A stretch of 64,000 nucleotides of DNA from Chiloscyllium plagiosum (GCF_004010195.1 NC_057718.1:82152458-82216457); one strand, 5' to 3'. Shown: positions 3,541 to 60,997, counted from the first letter of the stretch. Translations and numbers: made by a program. Notes: generated by a model not told the origin, from the sequence alone.

Positions 3541-4039
3541 TGGATGGAGGCTTGCTCGCTGAGCTGAAAGGTTCATTTTCAGACTTTGCGTTACCTTACT
3601 AGGTAACATCTTCAGTGGACCTCGCACGAAGCAATGCTGAAAACTCCTGCTTTCTATTTATATGTTTGGATTTCTTTGGGTTGGAGATGTCATGTCCTGT
3701 GGTGATGTCACTTCCGGTTCCTTTTCTCATGGGTCTAACTCCTATGTGTTTGTTGATAAATCTGTCAACAAACTCAAGTTAGACCCCATCTTCCACCCCC
3801 TGAGAAAAGAGGAAGTGACTTCATCACAGGAAATGACATCACCACGGGAAATGACATCACCAACCCAAAGAGACCCAAAAATATAAATAGAAAGCAGGAA
3901 TTTTCAGCATTGCTTCGCATGAGGTCCACTGAAGATGTTACCTAGTAAGGTAACAAAACGTCAGGAAATGAACCTTTCAGCTCAGCAAGCAAATCTACAT
4001 CCAAAACCACAACCTGAGCTACAAATCTTCTCAAAACTC
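3541..4039. mobile_element. Penelope-like element remnant with inverted pseudo-LTRs
   Basis: Inverted arms of about 200 bp, each with a hammerhead-like motif. Internal remnant SVNKLKLDPIFHPLRK. TSD GCATTTTAGGTGT at 3528-3540 and 4040-4052. Confidence 0.8.
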
Positions 4040-4629
4040 GCATTTTAGGTGTACCTATACATGGACTACAGCAGTTCAAGACTTCTCACCAGCATCATCT
4101 CAAGAGCAATTAGAGCTGGGCAAATAAGTGTTTACCATGCTAGTGCACCAACACCCATGAATAAATATTTAAAGACTATATTTACAACCAATGAAATACT
4201 TTTCAAAAGTGTTTTAAAACATCCTGAAGGGATGAAATACACTAAATAATTTTCAAGTTCTTTCATCTTGTAAATTCTCCAATCTCAAACTTTAAAATCT
4301 CAGTGTTTACCAGACTTTTCTTTGTATTTTCACAACAACTTCTGTTTAAAGCCAAAAGAGCAATTTAATGACAGCTGCCTTTATTCACCTCACTCTATAT
4401 TTACTAAGTAAAGTTTATTATGATATACAATCTATTAAGAGGAATCTGAAAAGTCTTACAGTCCTGTCTTACTGTACAAGAGGAGATTGCAGTAATAAGT
4501 AATTTTACTTTCCATTTTAAAGGAGAAGCCAAAAATGCAGTTGCGATATCCCAGAAAATACAACTTCAAGAAATTTTATTATTTGCTTATCTGAAACTCT
4601 TTTTTGTTCAAATTAAAAACAGGCTAATA

Positions 4630-7420
4630 GACATTCACAGCACAGAGGATGCCTTCCAATTGCAAGTCAGCAAAGATCTGACTACACTACTCCCATTTTT
4701 CAGCTCTTGGCCCACAGTTCTGCGGACTATGGCGATGCAAATGAATATCTAAAGACTGCCTATGTGTTGGGAGAGTTTCTAAATCAATCTTTCTTTCAGG
4801 CAGTGAATTCCAAACTCCTGCTACCTTCTGGGTGATAAAGTTTCTCAACTTTGGTCTTACCCTTTTGCCTCTTTCTTTTAAAACTATACCATATTGTTAC
4901 TGACCCTTTCACAGTGGAAAAAGTGCCTTCCTATCCACCCTATCTATGCCACTCAGTCTTCTAGAACTTTATGAGATTCACCCTCAACCTTCCCTTGTCT
5001 AAGGAAAGCATAACATATCCAATCTTTTGTCACAGCTCAGACCGACCAGCCCAAAAAGCATTCTGGCAAATCTCCTCTGCACCCCCTTTTATGCAATCAC
5101 TTTCCTTCATATAATGCGGTGACCAGAACTGTACACAGTACTCCAGCTGTGGCCTAATTAACATTTTACTGCATTATCTTCCAACTCCTGTATTCTATAT
5201 CCCTCAACTAATAAAGACAAGTATTCAATATGCCTTCTTAACTACCTACTTGTTCTGCTACCTACGCAGATCTGTGCATATATACACCAAGGACCCTTTG
5301 ATCTTCAGTACTTTTCAGGGTCTTACCATTCATAGTATATGCCTTGCTCTTCCTAAATCTGCCAAGAAAACAAGGTTAAATTCCATTTGCCACTGCTCTG
5401 TCCACCTGATGAGTCCATTGGTATCTCAATGCAGTTTATACTTTTCCATCTAACTATATACCAGTCTACTAAATTTCATGACATCCACGAACTTTTCAAT
5501 CATACCCTCTACATTTATGTCCAAATCACTCATATGAACCACAAATAGCAAGGACATCAGCATAGTGTCTGCAAAACCCCACTGGAAACAGACTTCCATT
5601 CACAAAAGCATCTCTCCACCATTACCCTTTGCTTTATGCATCTCAGCCAATTTTGGATCCAAAGCACCACTTTGCCTTGGATCCCATGTCCTTAACTTTC
5701 TCGACCGGTCTGTCATGACAGTCCTTATTAAAAGTCTGGCTATGGTCCACGTAGACCACAACCTCAACACTTGTCTCCTCAAAACATTCAATCAGTTTTG
5801 TCAAACATGACATTCCCTTAACAAATCCAAGCGAACTATCCCCAACTCTTACATGTCTCTCTACGTGCAGATATACTCTATCCCCCAGAATTCTTTCTAA
5901 TAACTCCCCATCACTAAGGTTAAGTTGACTAACCTGCAATTTCCTCCCTTTTGTAATAATGGGACTTTAGCAGTCCTCCAGTACCTCATCTATGGCAACA
6001 GAATATTTGAAAGTTACTGCCAGGGCCCCAAATATATCCTTTCTTGCATCAACGAGGCCTGGGGATTTCTCCGCTTTTAAGATGCTAAACCCTTTAGCAC
6101 CTCCTCTCTGTCTCCATTAACTTATTCTAAAATATTTTTACAATTCCTCACTCTGATATCTATACATGGGTCATCCTTTTCGACAGTGAAGACTGACACA
6201 AATTATTCACTGAGGACTGTCCCCATGTCTTCCAAATCAACACACAATTTACCTCTGTGGTCTCGAATGGACCATACTCCTTCCCTAATTACGCTCAATT
6301 TTTATGTAATTTTTAAAAATCTTCTGTGTTTTCTTTTATTCTGCCCACTAAAGCTTTCTTATGCACTCTCCTAGCTTTCCTAATTTCCTATTTAAGTTAT
6401 ATTTTTCACTTTTTATACACCCCTAGGGATTTTGCCATATTGAGCACTTGGTATCTGCACAAGCTTCTCTTTTCCTGAATCCTAGCTGATATCTCTGGAC
6501 AGCTAGGGTTCTTCGATTTTGGTCATTTGCCCTATACTCGTGCTATTTCCTTGAATGTCTCTTGCTACTCTGACACAGGTTTATCTGCAAGTAACGGCTC
6601 CTTGTTCACTTGGGCCAAATTGCATCTTATCTTTGTAAAATTAGAAATATTATTCCCAGCTCATCCTTTCTTTTTCCATAACTATCCTAAATCTAACTAC
6701 CCACTATCACCAAAATACCTCCCTATAAACATACATTCCACTTGTCAGGCCACTTTTCCCAATATTACCTTTGTTGAACTTTCTATTAAGAGTTCTCCGA
6801 GACACAGTTTAAGAATTTTGCTCCCTCTTTACCTCACAAACTAAAACCATCCCAGTTAATGTCTGGATGTTAAAATCCCCAACTATTATTCTTACATTTC
6901 TCCAAAATTTGATTACACATTTGATCCTCTATGTATCCCATATTGTTGGGGGCCTATAATATATCCCAACAAGAGTCTACTTTTATGTTTTTACTTCATG
7001 TACATGGCCTCATTTGATGATCCTTCCAAAATATCATCCCTCCTCACTGCCATAATCGAGTCCTTGATCAACTTTATGACCCCCTAATATTCTAGTATCC
7101 TCCAATCTTGTCTGAATATCATATAAACCAAGAATATTGAGCTACCAATCCTCTCCATCTTCAGGCAAGCCTCTATCAAGCCTACAACATTATACTCTAT
7201 GCGTCCTCTTTGTATCCACAGCTGATATATATCATTCCTCAGGCTCCTTGTATTCAAATATATTCCATTCAGTCTTGTTAAACTCACTTCTTTTTAATCT
7301 AGCCTTTGTTTCCTCTGACTTTCAGATTCACCCATCTCAGCTTCACTCCCCTCTGAAATACTTGACAGGATCTCAATCCCCTGCTAATCTCGTTTCAATC
7401 CACCCCAAGAAAGTTTTCTT
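4630..7420 (-). mobile_element. Older CR1 LINE
   Basis: YLNTRSLRN and GFVKGMSCLTKLIECFEE remnants through to the 3' UTR. Confidence 0.8.
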
Positions 7421-7797
7421 ACATTAAACATTGTATCTAAAATATGCACACTTAGATAGCATCATTCACAACTTCAGGACAATCCAAAGAACTTTATAGC
7501 CATCAAAATACTTATTGAAGTATGAACACTGTTGAAATGTAGGGAGAATGCAATAGTAAATTGCCAATATAGCAAGGTCCTATTAACAGCAAGAAGATTG
7601 TGAACAGATCATTTGTTTAAGTGATTATAGTTACAGGATGGAGAAGAAGTCGCACACCTAAGCCCTCTGCTGTTCTGAAACCTTTCAACATGACCTCCAA
7701 GGGAAGATGGGCCTTAGAGATCTATCTGGAAGACACATCCAATCACCTTCTAGTATAAGAAGCAATCATAATCCACCACTACCAAATGAGTTCTTAC

Positions 7798-8214
7798 CAT
7801 GAAACAGTGCTTGGGGAGGCATGACATCAGGAATGAGGTCTGCCTCAGACAAGAGACTAGGAGTAGCTGAATGAGATAGTGGGGTACCAGGAGCTGAAAA
7901 ATCCAGTGAGGGGGATGGAGAGGGGCTAGTAAGTGGAGTCCGATCTGAAGAGCTCAGGGAGGAAAAGTCGATTACTTCTCCTTTTTCCAGGATCAGTTCT
8001 GACCTACGAGTTCGGCTGCAGAACTTTACTGGGGTTGATGACGTGCTCCTGTCAATGAATGTAGCAGCTTCCTTTTGAGCACGCCGAATGTCCTTAGCTT
8101 CCTGAGTCCGGGATCGTTTCTCTTTTAATTCCATAGCTGTTTCTACAGGGTTCCGACTCACTCGTTTTCGAAGTCCTTCCACTGTAATAATTGGATCCAA
8201 AGGAGGCTTGACAG
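7798..8214 (-). CDS. KAT14: KAT14 coding exon 5 (417 nt); the gene continues beyond the left edge and the GNAT domain is not in the window
   Basis: Acceptor CTTTTCAG|, encodes (A)VKPPLDPIITVEGLRKR...SPSPSPSLDFSAPGTP...DVMPPQALFH, donor G|GTAAGA. Phase 1 to 1. Confidence 0.95.
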
Positions 8215-11200
8215 CTGAAAAGTGAAGAAAATCAACACACTTGATAAAATATTTTATTTAGTTAATGGTGGCAACTCGTCTCCTCTGCCATTGAAATGAA
8301 TAAAAAGTGTAATTGACGAATCTCGGTGCATTGCAGGATTGCACAAATAGTAACATAGACTTAAATACAACACACAAGTAGTATCAAAAGGGTACAAGTA
8401 GTAAAACAGCACTCAATTTGAAATTGCTAAATTGCTAATTCTGCTGGATGGAATCTGATGCTTTTAAAACCAAGCTCATAAATGTGTAAGTCAAATTAAG
8501 TACACAAAAAAGGAGCATGGTATGGAAAAGCACTAGGTACACTAAGGAAAATAAAAGCTGCTGTCAATCAGCTCTCAGGAGAATGGAAAAGAAGACTGTC
8601 AACAATTCTGGAAATAATAGAACTTTTTAAAATTAGTTTTGTGAAGTGAACTATCAAAGTCTATATTTGCTCACTGGGACAGGTAAAAGCTTATTAGATA
8701 TGATAGAAATATTAAATAAGCACTTTGTATTGATTTTCACACAAAGGTCATGCTTGAATGTTAGAATTTAAAGATTATCTTAACAAAACAAGAAATATTA
8801 ATGCGTTAGATCGAACGATGTGCCTGAAAACAAACAAAGCAGCCAGAATTATTGCATTGCAGGATAACAGGTATTATGAAGCAATGCAAAGTTGCCTTAA
8901 AATATATTCAATTACTGCACTGAACACTGTATTGATTTAAAAGAATTATTAGTATATAATCCCAGAACAGCCTACCCTTTGCTTAAAACATTTCCTTGAG
9001 GTATTTAATTGCGTTAGTGATCACAAACTGCTACACAGCCAAAACTCTTCCTGTTGAGTCAGGATTGATCTGCTGAATCAAGAGAAAGTGAAACATAACA
9101 GCTGAGTATCCAGTTTCAGCTACAAGCAACTGTCTTCTGCTGGGAAAAAAAGACTGTGCATAATGACTTTGAGTAGCTACCTAATCCACCTGCAAGCTTG
9201 GTTTTTGGTCAAAGTTTTGCTGTAACTTCAATTACACACAATTTCCATTTATGTTTTCAATCACATGAACAGAACATTCACTGAAGTGCTGGTGGGAGGG
9301 CCTGGGGTCACAGAGACATCTTGCACAAAACAACAAAAAGGAGCTGAGTTCAGTGAAACTACCAAAGGCAAAAGATTATAAAGTGGAATGACTATTAGAG
9401 GCAAAAAAAGATTGTAAAAGATTGCTGTGACAACAAGGGAAGTAGAATTCACGGTCTAACACAAGCATGGATGACAAAGGAAAACACACTAACCAAGAAT
9501 AAGATTTGGAAAGGTACAAGAGTGACTAATGGGAGTAAAAAATATTTTGCACAAGAGTAACAATTAAAATCAGAAAGTGAAAGTAGACAGAAAATCATAA
9601 AAGGGAGAACAACAGAAGTATAGTTGAACAGCACAGAATGTTGGAAGGTAATAAGTTACAACAAAAGAATAGAAGAGAGAAAAGGGACAAATGAGCTGGC
9701 AAATAATAGAAGAGGCAAAATCAAACAGAAAGCATGACAGTGAAATAAATGGGAAGTAACACAAAAATGGGGGTAATAACAAAAATAGAGTAAGAAAGAA
9801 AGATTATTAGCAAAAGAGGTAGAAACACAAAGAGAAGGAAATATAACAACCCCCAAAGAAAATGAAAATGAGAGAGTCAGACATTTTTATCAACACCATA
9901 ACCACCAGAATTGAGCAAGCTTCCCATCTAGATCTCAGAAAATGATAAATGCAACGAATGTGTCTGGTCTGAATAGAATGCAAAATTCCAATCCAATTCT
10001 ATCCCAAAAAGCAAGTGAATCGCTAAACAGAATTAGGAAAAGGACCCAAACATACCACATATGAGTACAAAAATAAAATCAGAACTTTAAACATGGATTC
10101 GTGCACAGCATTTGCCTACAATAAAAATTTGACAAACAATAATGTATTAAGGCAGGGAGAAAAATCCACTCAGCTCCCCAGACTTCCTTAAGCCAGCTTC
10201 GAGGCAAGAGCTTACAGTCTGTCCTACAACTTAAGCCACACGGATGATGGCAGCTCCTACTTGATTTGTCATTACCAGGTAAATCACATTGAAAATTATA
10301 AATAATTAGAAAGTTTGAAAATAACACTTTGGGAAAGATCCCAAGAAAACTAAAACCAAACTTGCTAATATATGACAAAGTTCAACGTTATGGACAGATC
10401 TGTTATGAGGAATGCAGAGTAAATGAATGTACCTTTGTTGTTTTACAAATGAACACAACCAAAAGAAGCCATTTAGATGAAGAATTATTGCACAAAGTCC
10501 TCCCTTGGCAACTGGGCAAAAGTAGTTTTGCCAGATAGTCACAAAGCAGTCACAAAGCAATCCCAAAACAACATCAAATGACATACAAATGGCTAACTGA
10601 TTACATGAAGTGCCCAAACATGAAGTTTGTTTATTAAAAAAAACACATTGTGCCCCACATCAAGAGTTTTACTGATTAGAGAAAACACCCAAGAGTTTAA
10701 AATAGACAAGTAAAATAGGGACCTTTCTGTCCCGTTTGAACCAATTTTGCTACAGTCATCCAGAAATAAATAGGGCAAAGAAAGTTACCCCAATTTCAAA
10801 CATGTCAAACAGGTTGCTGAGCTCTAGATTACAATTCAAATATTCTCAGAACATACTTTTGGTTGGCTCCCAAACAGATGTCTAAGGGCTGATAATTTTC
10901 AATGATTTTTTATTCTTTGTTTTGGTGCTAAAATATAATTTCAAAAAAAAAGAGATGAGACCTTATCAGAACTAAGCCCACGTTTAATTCACCAAGTCCT
11001 GAAGCTTAACAATCAGAACACAAGACCCCTAGTTCAACACTAGCTGCTTTATAAAGAACTATATGCAAGTTCATCAGGTTATTATTCACTTTATTGTCTA
11101 CAATGTGGCTGGCAAATATTTCCATACATCTGATGTGTCTATCAACCAGTTATCAAAATATCAGAGATACATCGTGATTCCCCCTCCGTTCAAAGTTCTG

Positions 11201-11890: not shown

Positions 11891-14563
11891 TGTGACTTGT
11901 AGTTAATGTTACTACCCAAAGATATTTTGGCATGCTGGAATTATTACTATATCTTTATATTCTTCAATTACTATGCACATACACTCTACTAAAATGTTAT
12001 GACCATATAATACTGACTTCTCTTTTTAAACACCCAAATTTTACCTATTTTCTAAAGTTTGTGCTGTTTTCTGCAATCTTTTTTCAACTAGAAAGCCATA
12101 GCCATCCAGGTAGTGAATGTTACAAAGACAGCCACCATTCTATAACTGTGAAATGGGAGGATATGTACATTCAGAGATTTTCTTTGTCAAAATTGGACGA
12201 ATCATTGTACGTGCCAACAATAATTAAATAAATAAATAAATATCTGGTCCCTAAACATAGGAAAGTTTCACCAGCACAATCTTGATCATCTCAAAAAACC
12301 AAATCACATTCAGGTATATGCATCTAGGTATGATAGAAAGGTGAAGCGATTCCCAAATACAAATGTGGTCTCCTCTAAATTGGACAGATGAAACACAGAC
12401 GAGGTGACCGATTTGCGAAACACCTACAAGTCCATAAAAAATGACCCCGACCTGCTACTCTCAGGCCTGCAGCAGTGCTCCACTGAAGCTCAACAGAAGC
12501 TGGAGCAACAATACATCATGTTCACCTAGATAATTTACAGCCTTCATGGACTCAACATGGAGTTTAACAATTTCAGAATAAGAAAACTCCTCAAAAGGTA
12601 ACCTTTGTTACCTACTCCCACACCCAGGTCCTGTTTTGTACAGGTTGCTCCCAGCCCAGTCAACCCATTTTCAACTATTCACGCTTCTTGTTAGCACCAT
12701 ACTCACCATTATCTCCCTCTTGGCTTATCATCAGCAATCCCCTTTGTTTGCCTCTCCTTTCTGCTCTCTTGGCACTGTCTCTGTGCCAACCCTTCAAGAA
12801 ATATAACCCTTTTCCAGCTGCCTTCAGTTCTGACATAAGCCTGTTTTTCAGTCTACAGATGCTGTCAGACCTGCTGAGTTTCTTACACTTTCTGTTTTAA
12901 CTTCAGAGTTTCAGCAATTGCAGTTCTTTGTTTTATATTAAAGAAATTAATTTCCTTATAACAATACAGGAGACTGCACTTTGAATAGGAATTCATACAG
13001 TCATCAGCCTTGGTCAATTCTCTACATTTCCAAACATCTTATGAATCAGTTTTCATTTACATCCTTTGGTTTCTTCCTTCCAAATGAAACATAGTACATT
13101 TATCTATAAAAAAAATTCAGCTGCTATTGGATGAATGTTAATGAATGTGATGAATTTCAATTATACTATCAGGGCACTAACTGAAAATATATCTGCCTCA
13201 ATGTCTAATTTATTTCCTGGATCTCAATTCCATTTTGTCTAAGCTTGTCTATTTTCTCATCCCTATCTGCTTTCACTGACTCTGATTGGAGTGCCTTCAA
13301 GAGGCTCCTATTCCACCGCTTCCCCTTTGCATGACTAAGAGTCTCCAATTCCCATACTTCCTCTCTATGGCTTTCATCTATTTACAATTTGCAAAAAAAA
13401 CCTCGTCTAATCACCATTTAGGTTTAGAGGTAAGTTCGTTGTTTTTTAATCCTCTGTGTTTCACCTGGTGGGGAGAGATAGACATAACAGGATAGGTGAA
13501 TGAAGACAGGGGAAGGAGGAAGGCTCAGGAATAGAGCAGGGGTGCAGAAATACATCAGGGATCAGGCAATGAGCAGGAGGATTGTGAAATGAATGAGAAG
13601 TAAAAGAGGATACAAAAGGGCAAGACAGCGATTTCAAAACAATAATAATAACTGAAAGGTGGTGCTGGGTGGGCAAAGAAATAGGGGGAAAGAAAAGAGT
13701 TAGGGAGGCAAAGCCCATATGCTCCAAATTTCCACAGTCAGATAGTGAAGGAGGTGGCACAAAACATGAGTGAGTATGGATGGAGGAAGGTAACAGTAGG
13801 TTGGACACCATAGGAAAAAAAATGCATTATAGTATGATGTGTAACAGTAGAGCAAGAGGCTGACTAGCGTACAAGGCAGACATACAGATGGAAAGGGCTA
13901 GATGCAACATCAGAGATTATGAGTCAAAGGAGTAAGGTACGAAATATTTCACACACTGGCCATTGCTCCTTCAATCCAAAACACAAACAGAATTAAGAGT
14001 TCAAACCTATAGGGAAGTAACTGATGCTGTGCTTAGACATTCATGGGAGATTTAGAAAAAAAATCACAAGATTTTCTAACAATTAACAAGATTATTATGG
14101 TTCCTGAAGGGAAATGCATTACCTTTCTTCCTGACGTTGAACAGAACATGCTTACAAACATAACTTTTACTGTAATTTGCAATAATCATTTCTAACAACA
14201 TCTACGACATCATCCTCTCTTTTAAACATTTAATTCTCAGTCATGCCGAGCTGAAAAGTATGGTACAAAACTTATATAAATGCCAAAATAACCTGTTTGA
14301 CGAGCAGCCGATAACACGGCAAAAATTAACATTTTACTAGTGCGTCAAAGGGAAATTAAAGCAGTACAAGTCACAGTTTATAGATTTGTCCCATCTCACC
14401 ACTATTCTCTAGTTGGTGAGCACAGCTATTAAAAACTGCTTCATAAAACAATAAGTAAGGATAGCACAGGCCAACACTGTGATAAACTCAACTGTCACAA
14501 CACTGCATGAGAATTACAATTTTTTTTGGTTGAATCCATGCCTATGTGGTGCACCTATTTTAC

Positions 14564-14948: not shown

Positions 14949-15074
14949 GTCCTGTTGAGGGCTTATGCCCGAAACGTCAATTCTCCTGCTCCTTGGATGC
15001 TGCCTGATCTGCTGTGCTTTTCCAGCACCAAACTCTCGACTTTGATCTCCAGCATCTGCAGTCCTCACTTTCTT
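14949..15074 (+). mobile_element. Single-arm PLE-terminus element
   Basis: Same family. TSD CTCCAACAACTAT at 14936-14948 and 15075-15087. Confidence 0.75.
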
Positions 15075-16634
15075 CTCCAACAACTATAACCATCTTTTTT
15101 TGTACTAGGTATGATTCCAAGCTGTGGAGTTTTCCACTTATTCCCACTGACTTCAATTTTGCAAAAACACATTGATGTCACATTTGGTCAACTGCTACTG
15201 ACATCAAGGGCAGTCACTGTCATCTCACCTCAGGTTCACCTCTTTTGTCCATTTTTAGACTAAGGATAAAGAGGAAAGAAGCTGAGTGGCCCTGACATTA
15301 TCTAAATTGAGCATCAGTGCATCTTGAAAACTCTCCTCCAAACCACAGTATAATTACCATTCCTTCACTGTTGCTGGTTCCAAAGCCTAGAACTCAGTTC
15401 CTAACAGAACAGTACAGGGTCCAAGGACATTTGCTGTTCAGCAACATCTCCACAGCAATTAGAGATGGGCCATAAAAACTGGGCTAGCTAGTGATGATCA
15501 CATCCTATGGACAAATTTTTAAGAAAAATCAGGGAACAAACTATTGACAGTTAATTGATAGCACTATCAAGACCCTTTCCATTACCTTGCTGATGATAAT
15601 GAGGAAACTAATGAGAGGGTAACTAGCCTTGTTGGATTTGGAGGAGAGGATTTCATAGACAGGAGAACACAACCAGACAATTTTCTCATTACTGGTAGGT
15701 GCCAGTGTTCTGGTGCACAAGCTTTCAGGACTATTGCCAGGATGTTGTCAGGGTCCATCGCCTTTCCAGGATCTAGGGCCTTCAGCCATTACTTGATATC
15801 ACTTAAAGCAAATCAAGTTGGCAGAAGATTAGCATCTGTGATGTTAGGGGCCTCAAAAACCAAGATGGATCATCCACTCAGCACTTCTGTTTGAAGGTGG
15901 TTACAAGTATTTCAGTGTGGTCTTTTGTGTTGACACACTTAATTTCTGTATCATTAAAGATGGGAATATTTGCGAAGCTCACTAGATATTAGTCATTTAA
16001 TTCTCCACCATCATTCAGGTCTGGATGTGGCAAGACAGCTGAGCTTTGATACGATAATTGTTTGTGAAATTTCTTAACTCCATTGTTTAAAGCTTCCGCT
16101 ATTTGGCATCCAAGTAATTCTAGTTTGCAGCTTCACCAGGTTAACATCTCATTTTCAAATATGCCTGGTTTGCACTCTTCATTGTCCCTTTTGCAGTCAC
16201 CATTGAACCAGGGTTTATTCCTCGACTTGATGGAAAATGGTAGAGTGATGTATCTCCCAGTCCATGACATTACTGATTGTTGTCGAATACAATTCTGTTG
16301 TTGCGTTTCATCGATGCCTCATTTCAAATTGCTGGATCTGGTCACAATCGATCTCATTTAGTGTGGTGATAGTGCCACGCAACTCAATGGAATGAAGGAT
16401 ACAATCTGTGTAAAGACAGGACATCGTCTCCATAAAGACAATGCAGTGAATAATTCTACCCACACTGGTGAAGGCAGATGCAACTGTGACTATATATTAA
16501 TAAGGATAAGGTCAAGTAGTTTCTTACTTCTTGGTGGTTCCTCCATCACTGTCCACAAACAGATACACCGCTCAGTACGCAGCCAATAATGGTCCTCCCA
16601 CCTTTTGATTTTGTAAAACACTTCCTTCTGTTCT

Positions 16635-17165
16635 TTTCTAATTCATTCGTGGGATGAGGGCATTGCTGGCCAGGTCAGCATTTATGGCCCATTCCTAGAT
16701 GTACAGAGGGCAGTTAAGAGTCAACCTGGATTAGAGGTGCTGGAAAAGCACAGCAGTTGCATTCCTGATGAAGGGCATTTGCCCAAAACATCAATTTTAC
16801 TGCTCCTCGGATGCTGCCTGAATTGCTGTGCTTTTCCAGCACCTCTAATCCAGAATCTGGTTTCCAGCATCTGCAGTCATTGTTTTTACCTAGTTAAGAG
16901 TCAACCACATTGCTATGGGTCTGGAGTCACATGATGGCTAGACCACGTAAGAATGGTAGTTTCCTTCCCCAAAGGGTATTAGTGATCCAGATGGGTTTTT
17001 CCCACAATTGAGAATGGTTTCATGGTCTTCATCATCTGAATTCCAGAATTTTTTTTACTGAATTCAAATTCCACCATCTGCCAATGCAGGATTCCAACCC
17101 TTGCCCTGAACATAATCTGGGTCTCTGGATTTACAGTCCTGACATAATACTATCAGGCTGTCACC
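16635..17165 (-). mobile_element. tRNA-derived SINE with a LINE-type tail, interrupted by a PLE element
   Basis: B-box-like GGTTGGAATCC near the 5' end. The 3' end resembles the tail of the second LINE family. Confidence 0.5.
16727..16891 (+). mobile_element. PLE-terminus element inserted in a SINE
   Basis: CTGATGAAGGGCATTTGCCCAAAAC core. TSD AGTTAAGAGTCAACC at 16712-16726 and 16892-16906. Confidence 0.75.
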
Positions 17166-44646: not shown

Positions 44647-44670
44647 TCTGCGGCCTGGAAATCCCGGCCC

Positions 44671-48642: not shown

Positions 48643-48807
48643 TCACCTGATGAATTGCCTTCACAATCACAAAACTCCACAATCACCTGATGAAGGAGCG
48701 TCGCTCCGAAAGCTAGTGTGCTTCGAATTAAACTGTTGGACTATAACCTGGTGTTGTGTGATTTTTAACTTTGTACACCCCAGTCCAACACCGGCATCTC
48801 CAAATCA
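48643..48807 (+). mobile_element. Short hammerhead-bearing (PLE-type) insertion inside a CR1
   Basis: TSD TATTTTAAAACT at 48631-48642 and 48808-48819. It contains the intact hammerhead and interrupts the CR1 reading frame. Confidence 0.75.
48684..48718 (+). ncRNA. Minimal type I hammerhead ribozyme motif, intact core
   Basis: cac-CTGATGA-A-GGAGC-gtc-GCTCC-GAAA-GC-T-A-gtg. Stem I cac/gtg, 5-bp stem II, palindromic AGCT in place of stem III. Predicted cleavage after A48715. Confidence 0.8.
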
Positions 48808-49461
48808 TATTTTAAAACTAATAGAGTTATGGTTGCTGTCCCCAAAGTGCTCCCCTCGAACACCTCAGTCACCTGCCCTGCGTTATTTCCCAAGAGTAGG
48901 TCAAGCTTTGCACCTTCTCTAGTAGGTACATCCACATACCGAATCAGAAGATTTTCTTGTACACACTTAACAAATTCCTCTACATCTAAACCCTTAACAC
49001 TATGGCAGTCCCAGTCTATGTTTGGAAAGTTAAAATCCCCTACCATAACCACCCTATTATTCTTATAGATAACCGTAATGTAATCTTACAAATTTGTTTC
49101 TCACTTTTCCTCTGACTACTGGGGGATCTATAGTACAATCCCAATAAGATGATCATCCCTTTCTTATTTCTCAGTTCCACCCAAATAACTTCCCTGGATG
49201 TATTTCTGGGAATATCCTCCCTAAGTACAGCAGTAATGCTATCCCTTATCAAAAATGCCACTCCCCCTCCTCTCTTGCCTCCCTTTCTATCCTTCCTGTA
49301 GCATTTGTATCCTGGAACATTAAGCTGCCAGTCCTGCCCATCCCTGAGCCATGTTTCCGTAATTGCTATGATATCCCAGTCCCATGTTCCAAACCATGCC
49401 CTGAGTTCATCTGCCCTCCGTGTTAGGCCCCTTGCATTGAAATGAATGCAGTTTAATTTAT

Positions 49462-49706
49462 NNNNNNNNNNNNNNNNNNNNNNNNNNNNNNNNNNNNNNN
49501 NNNNNNNNNNNNNNNNNNNNNNNNNNNNNNNNNNNNNNNNNNNNNNNNNNNNNNNNNNNNNNNNNNNNNNNNNNNNNNNNNNNNNNNNNNNNNNNNNNNN
49601 NNNNNNNNNNNNNNNNNNNNNNNNNNNNNNNNNNNNNNNNNNNNNNNNNNNNNNNNNNNNNNNNNNNNNNNNNNNNNNNNNNNNNNNNNNNNNNNNNNNN
49701 NNNNNN
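49462..49706. other. Assembly gap
   Basis: Run of N. Confidence 1.
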
Positions 49707-52405
49707 CGGGTCGGTGTGGACTTGTTGGGCCAAAGGACCTGTTTCCACACTGTAATGTAATGTAATGTAATCTAAAATCTCCCTGCCAGTATATTAGTCC
49801 CCTTCCAATTTAGTTGCAATCCGTCCTTCTTGTACAGGTCACTTCTAACCCAAAAGTGACCAAATCTGCAGTATGTGTTGGTTGCTCGAGGAACTGCAGC
49901 TCAGAGTTGATTACCTGCAGTCTGAGCTTTGAATAGGGTGAACAGTGTATATCAGGAGGCAGTCACACTCCTTAGAATTACTTCTATCAGTGGTCAGGGA
50001 CAGGAGGATGGGGTACAGGTGAGGCACGTAGAAGGATTCAGGAGGTAGCCTCAGCCCTTGAGCTTGTGTGGCATGAGTTGTGTGGTTGAGAGTGGAATTG
50101 TAGGGTGGATGAGCAAACTGAACATAGCATTGTGGTACAGAGAGCCATTCAAGAGGTGCGAGAAAATAGAAATGTAGTTATAATTGAGGATAATATAGTT
50201 GGGGGAATAGAAACTATTTTGTCACCAGATTTGAGAGTCCTGAAAGCTTTGTGGCTTGGTGCCATGGTTCAGGATGTCTCATCTGGGCTTGGAGTGGGAG
50301 AGAAAAGATCCAGTTGTCATGGTCTACGTAAATACCAACAATTACAGTAGAAAAAGGAAAGAGGTTATGAGCAGCTAGGGGCTAAATTTAAAAGAACCAA
50401 AAAGTTAACAACATCAGATTATTACTTGACCAACAAACTAGTTGATACAGAGTCAACAAGATTAAAGAGGTAAACATATAACTCAAGATTGGTGTGGGGA
50501 AAAGGGGTTCAAATTCTTGGGACATTGGCACCAGTAGTGGGAAGGAGGAAGCTTCACCTGAATCATGCTGGAACCAGTGTCCTGGCGAACTATGTAACTA
50601 GGGCTGTGGATCAGACTTTAAATTAAATAGTGGGGGGTAGATTCAGTTGCATTGAAAAGATTAAAAGGGCGGAGGGCTCAACAGAATTGCTCTGAGGAGG
50701 GGTCACTGGACCTGAAATGTTAACTCTGATTTCTCTTCACAGATGCTGCCAGACCTGCTGAGCTTTTGCAGCAATGTCTGTTTTTGTGCCTGATTTACGA
50801 CATTTGCAGTTCTTTAAGTTTTTATTTAGTAGGACACAGAGTATGGAAAGGGATCAGGAATCTAACTTCAGGCACAACAGATGAGGGGACAACTATGAGA
50901 AGGGGACTGTCAGTGTACGTAAGAGGATGTTGTATTTAAATGCATGCAGTATATAAAACAATGTAAATGACCTTGTAATGCAGATTGAAATTGGCATGTA
51001 CAAAGTTGTGGGTATCACAGACATGTGGCTGCAAGGGATCAAGAGCCAGAAAACATAGAACCTATTTGGGCAGAGTTGAGAAACTGCAATGGGAAAAAGA
51101 TCTTGATGGGAGTTGTGTACGCCTCCAAGCAGTAGTCAAGATGCGGGGAAGAAAATAAATCAAGATATGGAAAGGGCATGTAGGAAAGGCACAATTACAA
51201 TAATCATGGAGGAATTCAATATGCAGGTGGACTTGAAAAATCAAGTTGGTAATAGATCTCAAGAAAAGGAATTCATGGTTTTCTGGAGCAGCTTTTGGTA
51301 AAGTCCACTAGGGAACAGGCAATTCTTGGCATCGCAGACTTGATGAGGGAGCTTAAGGTGAAAGAACATCTAGGAAGCAGTGACCACAATATGAAAGAAT
51401 TCAGCCTACAGTTTGAGGAATGAACATTGAATCAACAAGAAAGACATGAGGGAGGAGCTGGAAAGGAAACCTAGCAGGAGTTTCTGGAGGTAATTTGGGA
51501 GGCACAACAGAAATTCATCAAAAAAGAAGAAACATACTGAGGGCTGAATGAGGCAACCATGGACAGCATAAAAGCAAAAGAAAAGCTTAGAATGTGGTGA
51601 AAATTAATGGGAAGCTGTTAAAAGCAGAAGGGGATAACTAAAATAGCAGTAAGGATGGACAAGATGAAATATGAGAGCAAGCTAGTTAGTAATATAAAAG
51701 AAGATTGCAAGATCTCTTAAAAAGTAGGAGAGAAGCAAGAGTGGACATTTCACCACTGGGAAATGAGGCTGGAGAAATAATAACAGGGAACAATGAAATG
51801 TCGGAAGAATTTAATAGGTATTTTGCATTGGTTTTCACAGTAGAAGATACCAGTAGCACACCACAGCTTCAAGAGCTAAGGTGCAGGGATGAGTGCACTG
51901 GCTCTCCCTAAAGAGCAGGTGCTGAGGAAGCTGGAAAGTCTGAATGTGAGTAAGTAAGTCACCTAGACCAGATGGACTACACTCCAGACTTCTGAAAGAG
52001 ATAGCTGAGGCAATTGTAAAGGTCTTGATGGTGATCTTTCAGGAATCACTGGAGTCAAGAAGAGTCCCAGAGGACTGGAAAATGGTTAATGTAATACCCC
52101 AGTTTAAGAAGAGAAGGATGCAGAAGGTTGAAAACTCTAGGTCAGTTAACCTGATCTCAGTCATTGGTAACATTTTAGAGCCTATTATTAAGATGAGATT
52201 GTAGAGTACTTGGAGGTGCAATGTAAAATAGGGCTGAGTCAACACTCCTTTCTATAGGAGAGGTCATGTCTGACAAATCTGCTAGAATTCTTTGAGGTAA
52301 TGAGCAAGTTACTGAAAAGCCAGTAGATGGGATTGATTTGATTTCCAGAAGGCCCTTGACAAGATGCCGCACAGGAGGCTGCTAAATGAGATAAGAGCCC
52401 ATAGT

Positions 52406-52719
52406 CCCAAACAAAAACAAATTGCTGCAAAAGCGCAGCAGGTCTGGCAGCATCTGGGGAGAGAAATCAGAGTAAACTATTCTCTCTGTTTGGGGTCTAA
52501 CCCCAGCTATCGTTTACCCCTTCTTTCCCCCCCCCCCCCAACTTTATGTTCTGCATATAAACTGACATTTTCCTAGTTACCATCAATTCTGAGAAAGAGT
52601 CACTCAAGCAGAAATGTTATCTCTGATTTTCCTCTGCAGATACTGCCAGACTTGCTGTGGTTTTACAGCAATTTCTGTTTTTGTTTCTGATTTACAGCAG
52701 CCGCAGTTTTTTCGGTTTC
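52406..52719. mobile_element. Fold-back element of a second PLE-terminus family inside a CR1
   Basis: Inverted arms CAGCAGGTCTGGCAGCATCTG / CAGATACTGCCAGACTTGCTG. TSD TAAGAGCCCAT at 52392-52402 and 52720-52730. Relatives at about 12820-12940, 39155-39330, 50690-50830 and 57535-57740. Confidence 0.7.
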
Positions 52720-53310
52720 TAAGAGCCCATGGTGTTCGAGATAAGGTACTGATATGCATTAACTGACTGGCAGAAAGCAGAGATTGGAGATAAAGGGGTG
52801 TTTTTTGATGGCAGCCGGTGACTAGTGGAGTTCTGCAGTGGTCCATGCTGGGACCACAACTATACACATTATGCATTAATAATCTGGTCAAAGAAACCGG
52901 AAGCATTGTAGCTAAGTTTGCAGATGACACAAAGATAGAGGAGCAGATGGTTTTTGAGAAAACAGGGGGACTGCAGAAGGACTTGAACAGCCTAGAAAAG
53001 TGAGCAAACAAGTGGCAGATGGAATACAATCTGGGAAAGTGTGAGGTTATATGCTTTGGTAGGAAAAATGAGGTGTAGGCTATTTTCTAAATGGGAAAAG
53101 GCTTCAGTGATCTGACGCACAAAGGGACTTGGGAGTCCTAGCTCAGGCTTCTCTTGAGGTTAACATGCAGGTTCAGTTGGCAGTTAGGAAGCCAAATGCA
53201 ATGTTTGTGCGAAGATTTGTAGCTCGGGTGCTCGTTGCTGTGGTTCTGTTCGCCGAGCTGGAAGTTTTTGTTGCAAACATTTCGTCCCCTGGCTAGGCGA
53301 CATCATCAGT

Positions 53311-54101
53311 NNNNNNNNNNNNNNNNNNNNNNNNNNNNNNNNNNNNNNNNNNNNNNNNNNNNNNNNNNNNNNNNNNNNNNNNNNNNNNNNNNNNNNNNNN
53401 NNNNNNNNNNNNNNNNNNNNNNNNNNNNNNNNNNNNNNNNNNNNNNNNNNNNNNNNNNNNNNNNNNNNNNNNNNNNNNNNNNNNNNNNNNNNNNNNNNNN
53501 NNNNNNNNNNNNNNNNNNNNNNNNNNNNNNNNNNNNNNNNNNNNNNNNNNNNNNNNNNNNNNNNNNNNNNNNNNNNNNNNNNNNNNNNNNNNNNNNNNNN
53601 NNNNNNNNNNNNNNNNNNNNNNNNNNNNNNNNNNNNNNNNNNNNNNNNNNNNNNNNNNNNNNNNNNNNNNNNNNNNNNNNNNNNNNNNNNNNNNNNNNNN
53701 NNNNNNNNNNNNNNNNNNNNNNNNNNNNNNNNNNNNNNNNNNNNNNNNNNNNNNNNNNNNNNNNNNNNNNNNNNNNNNNNNNNNNNNNNNNNNNNNNNNN
53801 NNNNNNNNNNNNNNNNNNNNNNNNNNNNNNNNNNNNNNNNNNNNNNNNNNNNNNNNNNNNNNNNNNNNNNNNNNNNNNNNNNNNNNNNNNNNNNNNNNNN
53901 NNNNNNNNNNNNNNNNNNNNNNNNNNNNNNNNNNNNNNNNNNNNNNNNNNNNNNNNNNNNNNNNNNNNNNNNNNNNNNNNNNNNNNNNNNNNNNNNNNNN
54001 NNNNNNNNNNNNNNNNNNNNNNNNNNNNNNNNNNNNNNNNNNNNNNNNNNNNNNNNNNNNNNNNNNNNNNNNNNNNNNNNNNNNNNNNNNNNNNNNNNNN
54101 N
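53311..54101. other. Assembly gap
   Basis: Run of N between inverted repeat arms. Confidence 1.
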
Positions 54102-54164
54102 AGGGACAGGCCACTATAAACACCGGAGGAAACATCAAAGAAGCGCTTCGCAGGAGGCTCCCAA

Positions 54165-54204
54165 GCACTGATGATGTCGCCTAGCCAGGGGACGAAACGT
54201 TTGC
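54165..54204 (+). ncRNA. Minimal type I hammerhead ribozyme motif, intact core
   Basis: gca-CTGATGA-T-GTCgCCT-agcc-AGGgGAC-GAAA-CG-T-T-tgc. Stem I gca/tgc and palindromic ACGT. An inverted copy with ACGT>ATGT lies at 53273-53310 (-). Confidence 0.8.
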
Positions 54205-55499
54205 AACAAAAACTTCCAGCTCGGTGAACAGAACCACAGCAGCCAAATGCAATGCTTGCATTCATTTCAAGAAGGCTAGAATATAAGAACAGAAATGCAT
54301 TGCTGAAGCTGTATAAAGGTCAAGAGTGTGGTCCTGGAAAAACAGAGCAGACTAGGTAGCATTCGAGGAGCAGGAGAATCAACGTTTCGGGCATAAGCCC
54401 TTCATCATTCTTGACTGCAGTTGTCCAGACCTGCTTTGCTGCTGAGCCAAGGTAAGTCAGGATGAGAGTGTGAGGCTGATGATGTCCAATTCTCCTTCAA
54501 TCTGATCCATTTCAGACATGTCATGTTAATTTTTGTATCTACCATCTGCCATCCATCATCTACTTGTCACAAGTCTGAGGACGATTGGCAACAAAAGTTG
54601 CAGGTGTGGACTTAGCTACAGTTGTAACTGAACCTGCATTCAAGTGGTTTTAAGGCTATAAGGACTTTTTACTGGAAGGAAGCAGAAATGGAACCTGTTA
54701 GCACCTAGAGCATGTGTGCATCCTTTTCAGGACCACACTGCCCAGCTCCCTAGTATTAGGAAGGAGCTGAAACTGCCCTAAATATTGTATGCTTCATCTC
54801 CAGCCATGGCTGTCAGAGGTCCCAAGAACACAAATGTAAATATATCTCCAAGTAAGGATCACACCATTTACCGTTAGTACACAAAGTATTTTATGGTAAA
54901 TGTTATAGTCAGACCTGAGAGAGGTACTTCTCATTGGTAGAGTGCTGGCATGTTATCCAGATCACCACTCTTCTCACTTCTAGAGTAGGATTAGTTCAAG
55001 GAAGTCGGTGCATGTTACATTTTCTTTTCGAGTAGTGTAGAAAAGAAGAACAGTGCAAAGCTGTTGTGTCATGAACCATCTCACCAATTAGTGACTTGCC
55101 TTCTCAAGGGTGTTAAATATCACCTAATGGTATTTAAACTTCCCCTCCATGGCAATAAGCAACTTCTGTTGGTGTGTACATCCCCTTCCATGATCTACCA
55201 AATCAAGAACTAATTCTATGATGAACTCCAATTCTTGTGTCAAGCTAATTATTTTTGATGACTTCAGATCAGATGGCGGGACATAAACTAGGCACTGAAA
55301 TGTTTGTCTGAGCTGGCATACTAAGTATCCACATTATATTGAAGTAATTGCAACTGAGTTGAGCTGACTTTATAACCAGGCTACCTGACACTCATTTACT
55401 AAAGCAAATTGTTTGAGAACACTTGTGCATTTTCATGGTCAAACAAAAACACTCCGACAACACTCTCAAGGTTTCAGCTAGGAGTTTTGGTGTTGACCT

Positions 55500-57040
55500 A
55501 GAAACAGAACATTACAATGCAGTATAGGCTCTTCGGCCCTCGATGTTGCGCCGACCTTTGAAAATAATCTGATGCCCATCTAACCTACACCATTCCATTA
55601 TTATCCATATGTTAGTCCAATGCTCATTTAAATGCCCTTAGCGTCGGCAAGTCTACTACTGTTGCAGGCAGGCTGTTCCACATTCCTACTATTCTCTGAG
55701 TAAAGAAACTACTCTTAATGTCTGTCCTAAAGCTATCACCCCTCAATTTAAAGCTATGTCCCCTCATGTTAGCCTTCACGATCTGAGGAAAAAGGCTCTC
55801 GCTGCCCACCCTACCTAACCCTCTGATTATTTTATACATCTCGATTAAGCGACCTCTCGACCTCTCAACCTCCTTCTCTCCAATGAAAACAGCCTCAGTT
55901 CCCTCAGCCTTTCCTTGTAAGACCTTCCTTCCATACCAGGCAACATTCTAGTAAATCTCTTCTGAATCCTTTCCAAAGCTTCCACATCCTTCCTACAATG
56001 TGGTGACCAGAACTGCATGCAATACTCCAGGTGTGGCCTTACCAATGTCTTGTACAGCTGAAGCATGACCTCTGGCTCCGAAACTCAATTCTCCTATCAA
56101 TAAATGCCAATACACCATATGTCTTCTTAACAACCCTATCAACTTGGATGGCACCTTTCAGGGATTTATGCACCAGGACACCGAGACCTTTCTGTTCATC
56201 CACACTGCCATTAGCCTAGTACTCTGCATTCCTGTTACTTCTGAAGTGAACTACCTCACACTTTTCCATGTTATCTCCATTTGCCACTTCTCAGCCCAGC
56301 TCTGCATCTTATCTATGTCCCTCTGTAACTCTCAACATCCTTTAACACTATCCACAACTCTGCCTACCTTAGTGTCATCTGCAAAGTTACTAACCCATTC
56401 TTCTACACCCACTTGCAGATCATTTATAAAAATGACAAACAGCCGTGGCCCCAAAACAGATCCTTGTGGAACACCATTGGTAACAGCTCCAGGAGGAACA
56501 TTTCCTATAAAACTACCCTCTCTATTCTTTCAGCTCGCCAATTTCTGATCCAAACTGCGAAATCACCATCAATTCTGAAACTCTATTATGTGCAATAGCC
56601 TACCATGTGGAACCTTATCAAATGCCTTACCAAAGTCCAATTACACCACAGCAACCGCTTTACCTACATCCACCTGTTTTGTCACCTTCTCGAAGAACTC
56701 AATACGGTTAGTGAGGCACGAGTTACCCTTCACAAAACCGTGTTGACTATCCCTAATCAAATTATTCCTTTGGTTATAAATCCTACCTCTTATAACCTTT
56801 CCACAGCCTTACCCATAACTGAAGTAAAACTCACTGGCCTATAATTACCAGGGTTGTCCCGACTACCCTTCTTAAACAAGGGAACAACATCAACACTACT
56901 CCTGTCGACAACGATGACATAAAGATCGAAGGCCAAAGGCTCTGCATTCTCCTCCCTGGCTTCCCAAATAATCCGAGGATAAATCCCATCCAGCCCAGTG
57001 TTCTTATCTATTTTCAGCTCTTCCAAAATTGCTAAAAACT
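55500..57040 (-). mobile_element. CR1 LINE, RT to 3' end
   Basis: [37 protein letters not shown] and FFTQRIVGMWNSLP. Confidence 0.9.
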
Positions 57041-60000
57041 CATCTTTGTCACTTGGGGAAAAGCTCACTCAAGATCAATGTACCTAGAACAAACAAATAG
57101 AAAATGGGTCCTCTTTCAAATTGAGTACTTATGAAAAGCAGAGAGAAATGCAGTAAGAGGGAATCCTGTTCCAGCAACTTGTCCAAAACTCAACTCAATT
57201 CCCTCATTATCACTTTCTATTTGAGAGTGTCTGATTGGTCTTAGTAGTCATCTACAAAGCCACTAGAACTCTATCAAACATCCCTGATGTTGAATATAGT
57301 TAGTTTTAACTCAAAGAATAAACAGTGATTCAATTACTTGGTTTTAAGTAAGGTGACTGAATCATGTGTGGTTCAAAGGAAGTCTACTAACAATGTTTTT
57401 CTGATTTTTTTTGGAATGTTTTACAAGGTGTTTACAGCACAAAAAGGCCATTCAGCCCATCAGATCTATACTGATGTTCATGCTCCACACACACTTTCTT
57501 CTATCCTCTTCATTTAACCTCAGCAACATCATTTTATAAAAGCAAAAATGTTGGAGAAGCACCACATTTGATTGAATTGTCAGAGCCATTCCAAAGAAAT
57601 TATATCAGACTAAAAATGTTAACTTAGTTTCTCTCTCTATATGTGCTGCCAGGCCTGCTGAGTGTCTCCAGCTTCTGTTTTCTCCAGCATTTTCTGGTTT
57701 CATTTCAGATTTCCAGCAGCTGCAGTGCTTTATTTTCATTTAAGCATACTCTTTTAGCCCTTTTCTCATTCGTGTGCATATCTAGGTTCCACTTAAAGCA
57801 TCTGTACAATTTACCTCACTTCATTTTGATAGCACATTTCACATCTTGTACATTCTTGAATAAAAAGCTTCAATTTGATGCGATCCTCGCAAAAAAGTCT
57901 GGTAGCAATAGGGGAAAAAAGGGCTGAATTTTAGGTCTAAATCAAATGCGTAGTCCATGTCAGGAAGAATGAGAGACTCACTAAATGAATCTCTTGAAAA
58001 GGATGTAGAGCAAAGTTGTCACTGACATCATTTTGTTCAATACCTTTATTGTTAGCGTGTTGAACGACAATGCTGCAAAAACAGGATGAAGGACACTCAA
58101 ATCCATGCCAAGTGAGTAATGCCCAAACTGACCTCTGAGGATTCCCTGGTTTCAACCATCTTCAAAGATAGTGGACTGTATCCAACCAAATTTTCAAAAA
58201 GCATGATGATGCCAGCTGCTCCTCAAGTGCAAGAAGAGACCAGACCTGAAGTACAAGTGCTGCCGTACGGCCGTACGTTCCCGACAATGGAACATATTTC
58301 AACCTGTCCAATTACTTCTATTATAGGGAGCACCTCATTTTTCTACGAAGCATCCTAGGAGGCCATTAGATGAATAGCCAAACTTGATATTTATTGTTTG
58401 CTGTTCTCATATGAAAATAAAAGAAGGAAACAGACTGTTTTATTCCAGTGATACCTCCTGGTCAGTAGAATTGTCATTTGATGTGCACTTTGCTCACCAT
58501 GTTGAACAATACTTTAACCAATAGGATCTGTTATGTGTCCCAAGGGTGGCATTATCGCTGTACAGAGCTTAAAGGAGGATGTTGCAGATATTGATTAGAA
58601 GATTCAAGCAGTACTCATTCCATAGTTGACATAGCAACATGTGAAGGTGCTAATTGATGCCAAAGTTTTGAACACAATTATTTGGAGCCATACTGAGATG
58701 AATGGAGGTTCATCTGGTATCCGCATCTTCTTTAATGACCACAAAGCACCAATGAAGGTTAGGTTTATGTGCAAGTCGGGTGTTTAAATAGTTTTTATGC
58801 TAAGAGTTCTCAGACAGATTTTACCAGATGTCCATCAGCTCATTTTGAAGATCCAAGTCCAAAACATTTGGCAAAAGGAACAAATAGTCACAGCGTAGGA
58901 GGGAGGGCTCCAAACTACTTGTGCCTTTGTAATGGACATTAGTTTCTTTGCTAAAGTCTGCCATTTTAAGACGTGGATTATACTTAGCTGCTGTGTTAGC
59001 CTGGTAACAGGTGCTAAACTTGCACATCAAGAGGATTTGCTCATCATTAATTATTCTGCATAGATTATTTTATAACATTGAAATTGTCCTGTGCACTTCA
59101 GTCCTTTCCAAGTTTAACTGTTCCAATACTGTTGGTTTTATGAAGGATAAATATTGTCCTGTGTACCAACAGAACTCCCATGCTGTCCTTTGCAATAATG
59201 GCCACTTTTTTTTTAAAGGGCAATTAGGATTTCAGTTTAACATTCCCAGATGAAACACAGTGCAGTTCTCCTTCAGTACTACATTGGAGTTTCAGCTTGA
59301 AATAGACACAAGTCTCTGGAATGATACCTGAACTCATGATCTTCTATTTCAGAGTCACAATAAATAGGCAGATGGACCTCTTGTTGTGAGTAGATGAGGA
59401 CAAGATATTGTCCTTGCACATCAATACACCAAACAGCTGAAGACCAACAGTAAACCTGGTCAGAAAGAACCAAGTACCAACTTGGAAAGCCAGGGTAGAT
59501 TACCATGTCATAAGAATGAAGAGTACTGTTGGGGGATACTGGGTCATTGACAGCGTACCAAATGGTCCAAAGCAACACCGTAGACCTTTGGTGCCTAGTG
59601 TATTTTTTCTTTGGATATTTGCCACTCCCAGGTGATTATATGGTTGGGAGAGTGAGGGACAAGAGGATCTAGTCATGAATGAGGGGTGGCCTTCATGCAC
59701 CCATTCGTATTTTCCTATTTGTCAATTTTGTATATTCATAGGACCTGAAGTGCTGATGTGTGCTTCAAAGCTTTGAACTCCCAATGTAAAGCTATGCAAT
59801 TATTTAATAAGTGAGAATATTACCCAGACACTCCCAAGAAAATAAACAGGAATGGGACCACCCACTAATTTTGCCTGAAGTGAGATTGGGGAGCTGTAAT
59901 TATCTTCAGAAATGGAAATCAATTGCATGGTTGAAATATTTTTATAATTACATTTTCTGCCTCTCAATTAGTTTTAGTGGATGCTTGCCCACAAAGTGGA

Positions 60001-60869
60001 TATATATTTCATCACAACCGAGCAGCTTCCAGCTAGTTGTCTTTAACCATTGACTCTCTATTATTGAGATAAACTAAAGGATTGGTTGATTTAGGTCAGC
60101 AAATGATGATGGTTAGATGACTCATTTACTCAGAAATCTATATTATTCATTGTTCAGTTACATCAGCCAATCAGAAGTGCTAATATCAGATCTAAATCAA
60201 TATTGCTATCAAACAAAGAGATACCTGAGATACACTTATGAATGTTGACAAAAATAATCTTTTAAAATTTCATGCTGAGAGATGCAGTTGGCATCCCTCT
60301 GGATCGTATCTGAGCCAAAATGGTGAAGTTTATCAGGTTATTCAACTATAAAACATTTCGAGAATGCCTGATCCTATCTTCACACAATGTTGACATGAAG
60401 AGCTTTTCGGCAAGGATGGAGGTGGGAGGGCATTATATCATGATTATAAACAGGAATCTATCGCCTGATTTTTCTCCAAACTAAAACACCAACCACTTTT
60501 AATTGTTGACAACCTAATTGAGTACAATTTGTTCATTCGTTTTTACCATAGCTGAAGCATCATCTTGCTTCTTCTCTGTCTTAATTAAAGCATCCCTTGA
60601 TCGATGTCTCAATATTATCCATCCATCCAATTTTTATTCTTCCATCTCTGTTTTACCCTTAGTTTCAGAACAAGTCTGTCAGTTCTCTGTTTCCAATGTT
60701 CTGCCTGATTTTCTCCTTGTTTTTGCTTTGTGTGAAGAGTTCTGTTGTTCAACAATTGCTTGGTCACTGGTGGTGGAGGACACAGTGGACACTTGCTTCA
60801 GAGTTGGAGTGCAAGGTAAACAAAATGCCTGCCTCCATATTAGGTTTTGGCCTGAAAATTGGCCACCTT

Positions 60870-60997
60870 TCCTGAAGAAGGGCTTATGCCCGAAATGTCG
60901 ATTCTCCTGTTCCTTGGATGCTGCCTGACCTGCTGCGCTTTTCCAGCAACACATTTTCAGCTCTGATCTCCAGCATCTGCAGTCCTCACTTTCTCCT
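60870..60997 (+). mobile_element. Single-arm PLE-terminus element
   Basis: CTGAAGAAGGGCTTATGCCCGAAATGTC...CAGTCCTCACTTTCTCC, same family as 30773. Confidence 0.75.

Follow-up and report, generated by a model that had tools for sequence, protein, structure and literature searches.

Does the hammerhead-like layout that recurs along a 64,000-nucleotide stretch of the shark Chiloscyllium plagiosum (GCF_004010195.1 NC_057718.1:82152458-82216457; hereafter the window, meaning the whole stretch analysed) mark the ribozymes of Penelope-like elements (PLEs), and if so, from what kind of RNA were the copies made? An earlier note on this DNA had proposed minimal hammerheads in the ends of several PLE families. 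This interpretation is supported, as every family is linked to a PLE protein and all nine subfamily consensuses fit the published minimal hammerhead consensus (Cervera and De la Pena 2014, PMC4209133; here and below, statements on published work refer to the sections of each source that we drew on). With a probability of about 0.7, we consider the motifs to be minimal type I hammerheads of the pseudo-long terminal repeats (pLTRs) of Neptune- and Poseidon-type PLEs, present mostly as decayed end-stubs for which uncut element RNA was the likely template of reverse transcription.

Hammerhead motifs and their element families

A strict descriptor (CTGANGA, one nucleotide, stem II, GAAA, NN-T) gave eight matches in the window, at 7945, 30898, 38058 (minus strand), 48687, 50692, 53309 (minus strand), 54168 and 60872, against 0.1 ± 0.3 (maximum 1) in 30 dinucleotide shuffles. 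With one mismatch tolerated, the counts were 10 against 2.0 ± 1.5. Hand parsing yielded 19 motifs, and profiles built on the non-ribozyme tail of the repeat found 26 element ends, so with decayed copies included the layout does recur more than 12 times, as the earlier note had it. The five stem II types, the ACGT and AGCT palindromes and the cac/gtg and gca/tgc stem I pairs that it described are all present. Only two of the 19 motifs, at 48687 and 54168, are complete, with core, GAAA, stem II, palindrome, NUH and stem I together. Elsewhere G12 is lost (3929), U16.1 is lost (37101), the first stem I pair is lost (30898) or the palindrome is broken (38058, 50692, 53309 and 60872). The match at 7945, with a stem of only 3 bp and outside any repeat family, looks like chance. 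An Rfam 15 scan of the window returned no hammerhead family at E ≤ 10, as expected for motifs without a stem III. Weak microRNA-like Rfam matches, far below the gathering score, fall on long inverted pairs and were rejected as microRNA genes.

Across the 3.56-Gb genome, a loose pattern matched 231,569 times against 1,291 for the reversed pattern, and an exact 28-mer of family A matched 13,959 times against 0 for its control. The reversed-pattern control and the shuffle counts in the window rule out a chance origin. A sample of 898 kb, made up of the window together with 16 neighbouring and 70 spread 10-kb stretches, contained 58 matches to the loose pattern; the tail profiles found 282 ends in it, which extrapolates to ~1.1 million ends genome-wide. 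An intact motif was present in 42 of these 282 ends, the other ~85% being decayed or shortened, and extrapolation from the sample gives ~160,000 intact motifs in the genome. The genome is therefore densely seeded with PLE ends, as had been claimed, but the description of these ends as ribozyme-bearing stands for master elements only and fails for ~85% of those sampled.

The location of the motif in the pLTR follows, for all families, from its linkage to PLE reverse transcriptase or GIY-YIG endonuclease frames. The five stem types sit behind Neptune-type (families A, B and C) or Poseidon-type (D and E) proteins, in agreement with the earlier count of at least four families, and a sixth, Poseidon-type family, F, is present elsewhere in the genome. 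Family A (GGAGC/GCTCC) is represented by a locus, L011, where a motif is followed by a PLE N-terminus, reverse transcriptase and, 2.5 kb on, a second motif, with an inverted copy upstream. In family B (GGGC/GCCC), the motif lies ~290-335 nt after a GIY-YIG frame with a Cys linker at many of 30 loci, among the matches listed, and in family C (GGGTC/GACCC) a related Neptune-type endonuclease precedes the motif at six of 25 loci. Five near-identical family C loci (L223 and L241-L244) share flanks and are probably a segmental duplication or assembly redundancy. In families D, E and F, the motif follows a GIY-YIG frame without the linker, as in the Penelope/Poseidon type. The CX2-5CxxC linker precedes the endonuclease in B, C and A-type frames. 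This linker marks Neptune or Nematis (10.1101/2021.04.23.441226), and we class families A, B and C as putatively Neptune-type by the linker, which alone does not separate the two. Pfam searches with nine frames found RVT_1 in two and GIY-YIG in three, all under the curated cut-off, and thus weak but consistent.

We derived majority consensuses for nine subfamilies, using flanking motifs for the assignment; B1c and B4, for which copies were too scarce, were omitted from the pair count. All nine keep CTGANGA, one extra base (A in Neptune-type, T in Poseidon-type consensuses), GAAA, the palindrome that replaces stem III (ACGT in seven, AGCT in two) and, after it, NUH. The G10.1-C11.1 pair is kept except in F, which has G-U, and 168 of the 169 strict copies have C, T or A at N17. 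Covariation analysis of the consensuses, suggested earlier as a check, showed pairing in 60 of the 63 variable stem pairs, whereas shuffles averaged 30.7 and none of 20,000 reached 60; for the five independent families alone, the count was 33 of 35 against 17.0. Pairing fails where two B subfamilies have T-T as the third pair of stem I and where E has A-G in stem II. Free-energy folding predicted stem II and neither an active monomer nor an active dimer fold.

Within a family the picture differs. In 81 B copies, the non-CpG positions of the core are 0.89-0.98 identical, similar to the tail, whereas the CpGs (G12 and the CG of the palindrome) decay fastest, at only 0.64-0.74. The core is thus no better kept than the adjacent tail, and selection on individual copies was rejected. 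Excess conservation of core and pairing over the rest of the repeat, which the earlier note had made a test of its reading, is accordingly found between families and missing within them, as expected for copies that are dead on arrival. Selection acts on master elements, not on copies.

In the Poseidon-type families the motif also overlaps coding sequence. At one locus (L126), a 276-codon frame with a PLE N-terminus begins at A9-U-G10.1. When its first 120 residues were used as a query, 14 of the best 30 matches began at residue 1, most reading an in-frame AUG there. The 'extra nucleotide' is hence the U of an AUG in these families, a position that agrees with the Poseidon element PAc of Anolis carolinensis (Frangieh et al. 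2024, PMC11167929). The endonuclease frame from upstream stays open into the motif, and in 93 of 111 copies it ends there, at a TAG or TAA in loop II. The motifs of families D, E and F therefore hold both an AUG and the upstream stop, and the open reading frame (ORF) starts inside the pLTR, as is characteristic of Penelope/Poseidon. On this arrangement, a fold overlapping a stop and a start 8 nt apart could couple cutting to translation of tandem units.

Copy ends and the RNA template

We counted 5' start positions relative to C3. In family B, 68 of 149 copies start between -7 and +3, compared with nine between -50 and -13 and three at the cut site. Forty-four of the 68 are in pairs, and 24 of 63 solo B copies start there too, with unrelated flanks. 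Starts fall between -14 and +1 in 16 of 37 family A copies, and between -5 and -7 at 15 of 24 distinct family C loci (judged by eye; the search pattern itself required -5). In the Neptune families the 5' start is sharp and falls on the first base of stem I. In B and C, position -4 is occupied by the A of a YYANWYY-type, initiator-like sequence. Genome-wide, a purine replaces the consensus pyrimidine just before -4 in 6,366 B copies against 379 before -7. In RNA reads from one raw single-cell run, of an organism holding the repeat, 109 loose ends fall at -4, a step that is present on both strands and resembles read-through of many copies; no ends pile up at the cut site, in a data type ill-suited to show this, and a second sequencing run gave no reads. 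Given that many A, B and C copies begin at the first bases of the motif and not at the cut site, they were likely copied from uncut RNA. The ends suggest both that templates were uncut and that transcription begins at the motif.

The 3' ends are bimodal. Counted from the cut site, they lie ~62 and 99 nt downstream in family B, 57 and 92 nt in family A, and 45 and 80 nt in family D, so that the two end points are ~35 nt apart. At L011 (G000:C1:13305500-13314000), the long end point of family A coincides with the element start codon, ~92 nt after the cut site. In anole PAc, the 30-40 nt PLE tail has been traced to two internal start sites of reverse transcription (PMC11167929). Head-to-head partners lie within 120 nt for 24 of 42 A, 78 of 164 B and 18 of 52 C ends in the 898-kb sample. 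One arm is short and one long in 48 of 53 pairs (read from the table), and a target duplication of 10-17 bp encloses 37 of the 53, against 11 of ~300 random flank pairs. As short and long arms lie inside one target duplication, each pair is a single insertion. Micro-homology occurs at many pair junctions. The copies thus show the 30-40 bp tail on one end, the inverted partner and the target duplication of endonuclease-containing (EN+) PLE insertions. One family B pair (30772-30995) is predicted to form a single long hairpin (-182.7 kcal/mol, z -21.6), a fold that would hide the ribozyme. About half of the A and B ends lie in tight head-to-head pairs, for which a long hairpin is predicted in place of a hammerhead.

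These data allow us to propose a mechanism. The element protein would nick both target strands, and reverse transcription would be primed on uncut RNA at two internal sites that lie 60-100 nt past the cut site; two-site internal priming has been shown in vitro for the anole element (PMC11167929). In Neptune families, the transcript would likely begin at the initiator-like sequence 4 nt before the core. With a transcript start near the core, the enzyme would run off after ~95-135 nt and leave motif-sized stubs, and two cDNAs joined at their run-off ends would give head-to-head pairs. The ribozyme would be kept functional in the masters, would cut slowly and only as a dimer through the 4-nt palindrome, with protein help, and would serve some step other than preparing the template. 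The literature describes slow cleavage by dimers, and protein-assisted cutting was dispensable for insertion in the anole system (PMC11167929). More broadly, though at odds that we put below even, the ~1 million stubs may be a natural read-out of the transposition cycle. Neptune RNA would begin at the first stem I base; the uncut front end, from this start to the two priming sites, would be the most mobile unit, resembling a short interspersed element but without a separate element; the ribozyme would act later or elsewhere; and the Poseidon fold could link cutting to translation through its overlapping stop and start.

Several observations weigh against this account. Poseidon copies have no pile-up at the motif, and 10 of 11 reach at least 67 nt upstream. 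The 17-fold genome-wide ratio of B starts at -4 to those at -7 is inflated because the -7 control pattern covers only some B subfamilies. The long-copy control for 5' ends (22 of 22) was selected for upstream homology. For a cap-derived G, raw G:A ratios before the start were 64:36 at -4 and 60:40 at the control position, with no difference; after post hoc removal by hand of element-derived flanks they were ~40:19 and 23:29, a hint only. Starts at the cut site account for ~1.2% of copies against 0.4% at nearby positions. No full-length B or C element was found in 12 fetched stretches, and the likely transcription start at -4 in Neptune families is read from stub ends.

The rival that survives best, which we nevertheless regard as unlikely, is that the 5' pile-up reflects a reverse transcriptase stall, or a fold-back or template-switch hot spot, at the 5' strand of stem I in a longer RNA, aided by short complementarity among stem I, core and tail. 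Fifteen of the first 100 genome-wide -4 starts are perfect snap-back hairpins, and the junction micro-homology, the large share of piled-up B copies found in pairs and the absence of a cap-G excess on raw counts all favour it. It does not account well for the solo B copies that share the start amid unrelated flanks, or for a start that is sharp to one base and matches the initiator-like sequence in B and C, and a stem I of only 2-4 bp would be a weak barrier.

Considerably less probable is the proposal made in 2014 that the ribozyme cuts, and maybe circularises, the template before reverse transcription, the copies deriving from cut or circular RNA. The cores are under selection in the masters, and filter-corrected starts at the cut site number 2,339 against 984 at +3 and 792 at -3, a small excess by which some templates may be cut. 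This footprint is weak and confounded, however. A hand count of the first 100 such starts put ~30 down to inversion junctions for which micro-homology accounts and ~10 to small indels, the share of copies involved is small, only three of 149 sampled copies start at the cut compared with 68 at the motif edge, and uncut RNA is the main substrate in the anole system (PMC11167929). Least credible of all is a non-cleaving role of the fold as promoter, protein-binding site or carrier of the Poseidon stop and start codons. In its favour, the D, E and F motifs carry both codons, and the cleavage reported in vitro is weak (PMC4209133). Against it, none of the nine consensuses, drawn from two clades, has lost a catalytic base or the NUH, even in the Neptune families, whose motifs code neither codon; the anole relative of these motifs cleaves in the presence of protein, and its activity is lost when the core is mutated (PMC11167929).

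Element ends along the window

Poseidon-type ends open the series. The short-tail arm of a family D inverted pair lies at 3536-3718 (minus strand; C3 at 3615, GAAA decayed) and its long-tail arm at 3780-4056 (plus strand), where the final codons of the endonuclease frame run into the motif (C3 at 3929); the pair sits in a 12-bp target duplication. An 18-nt tandem repeat in this pLTR, at 3810-3862, has a period that leaves the endonuclease frame uninterrupted as far as the stop codon within the motif. A second family D pair, of subfamily D2, spans 37945-38690 on both strands (C3 at 38058, minus, and a decayed motif at 38607, plus). Family E provides a long-tail arm at 53200-53310 (minus; C3 at 53309) and a short-tail arm at 54102-54245 (plus), the latter with an intact motif (C3 at 54168), an AUG at 54174-54176, the TAG of the upstream frame at 54182-54184 and a predicted cut after 54201. 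The two arms are separated by an assembly gap at 53311-54101; other N runs lie at 47274-47458 and 49462-49706.

Family B (Neptune) is the source of head-to-head pairs, with arms on both strands, at 16724-16892 (plus motif with C3 at 16765, decayed), 25399-25625 (motifs near 25526, minus, and 25530, plus; target duplication ~14 bp), 30772-30995 (core-centred; C3 at 30898, plus; 12-bp target duplication; predicted hairpin of ~100 bp) and 36974-37190 (C3 at 37101, plus; 14-bp target duplication), and of a pair at 46222-46394 whose plus arm is partly deleted (minus motif near 46311, decayed). Its stubs lie at 14952-15079 (plus; start inside the core), 54315-54408 (minus; start at the core, C3 lost) and 60869-60997 (plus; solo, with a long tail, starting 3 nt before C3 at 60872). 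The family A (Neptune) stub at 48681-48800 (plus) has an intact motif (C3 at 48687; GGAGC/GCTCC, AGCT, cac/gtg) with a predicted cut after 48715. Family C (Neptune) left a stub at 50686-50824 (plus; C3 at 50692), an old head-to-head pair at 39159-39330 (both strands), an old inverted pair at 52413-52721 (both strands; plus motif near 52589, decayed) and old tail remnants at 12846-12938 (plus; motif unrecognisable) and 57630-57740 (plus). A broken Neptune-type linker and GIY-YIG endonuclease fragment at 40057-40408 (plus) has no adjoining motif and no Pfam match.

Two open frames on the minus strand, at 7769-8257 and 31335-31679, look like exons of one host gene, in which case the motifs between them would be intronic. 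They resemble vertebrate KAT14 (CSRP2BP), a putative assignment for which Atlas and PDB look-ups gave no identification. A GC-richer region at 44100-44950, possibly a host promoter, contains several GTCACCATGGAGAC-like motifs that we take to be of RFX type. Broken reverse transcriptase fragments of long interspersed elements, presumably of CR1 type, lie at 605-1955, 19215-19613, 34987-35600, 41408-42426, 47135-49771 and 55600-56900, with RVT_1 matches at 608-1408 and 47461-47953.

Relation to known systems

The motifs share with the metazoan minimal hammerheads of PMC4209133 the CUGANGA-H core, G10.1-C11.1, GAAA, a palindromic 15.2/16.2, NUH and a short stem I, as well as the occurrence of several consensus families per genome, mostly as dispersed single motifs, with opposite-strand pairs. 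They depart from that consensus in the G-U of subfamily F at 10.1/11.1 and in the mismatched third stem I pair of the main B subfamilies. Loose matches number ~230,000 here against ~4,000 in coelacanth and ~9,000 in Xenopus, although the descriptors differ. No shark entry was found in the searched part of the supplements to that paper (part of file 2). Compared with PAc, ours is a genomic record over six families that includes Neptune types, whose ORF start lies outside the motif. Neither a loop II stop of the upstream frame nor a pile-up of 5' ends, both found here, is mentioned for PAc in the sections of PMC11167929 that we used.

Canonical EN+ PLE insertions (Craig et al. 2021, 10.1101/2021.04.23.441226; Arkhipova et al. 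2013, PMC3846280) share 5' truncation, an inverted head-to-head copy, a 30-40 bp tail at one end, target duplications and an initiator-like pLTR sequence with the copies described here, whose main product is, in contrast, a stub of 95-135 nt or a stub pair centred on the ribozyme. Non-LTR retrozymes carry type I hammerheads related to those of PLE pLTRs and are known in one chondrichthyan, yet they form tandem arrays (10.64898/2026.07.22.740005), whereas our copies are dispersed solo or inverted stubs. Retrozyme arrays were rejected, as the window holds no tandem hammerhead array.

The motif class, its pLTR location, the palindrome, the extra base and the inverted pairs are thus already published; relative to the literature compared, the host group, the scale and the end statistics are new. 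Our searches found no paper on shark PLE hammerheads or on the 5' pile-up, with subscription papers and bioRxiv supplements lying outside them. For annotation, these results warn that ribozyme-like and microRNA-like matches in such genomes are mostly transposon debris. The PLE hammerhead is kept across animals and yet cuts poorly, and the copy number in this shark is large enough for mechanism to be read from the points at which copies start and stop.

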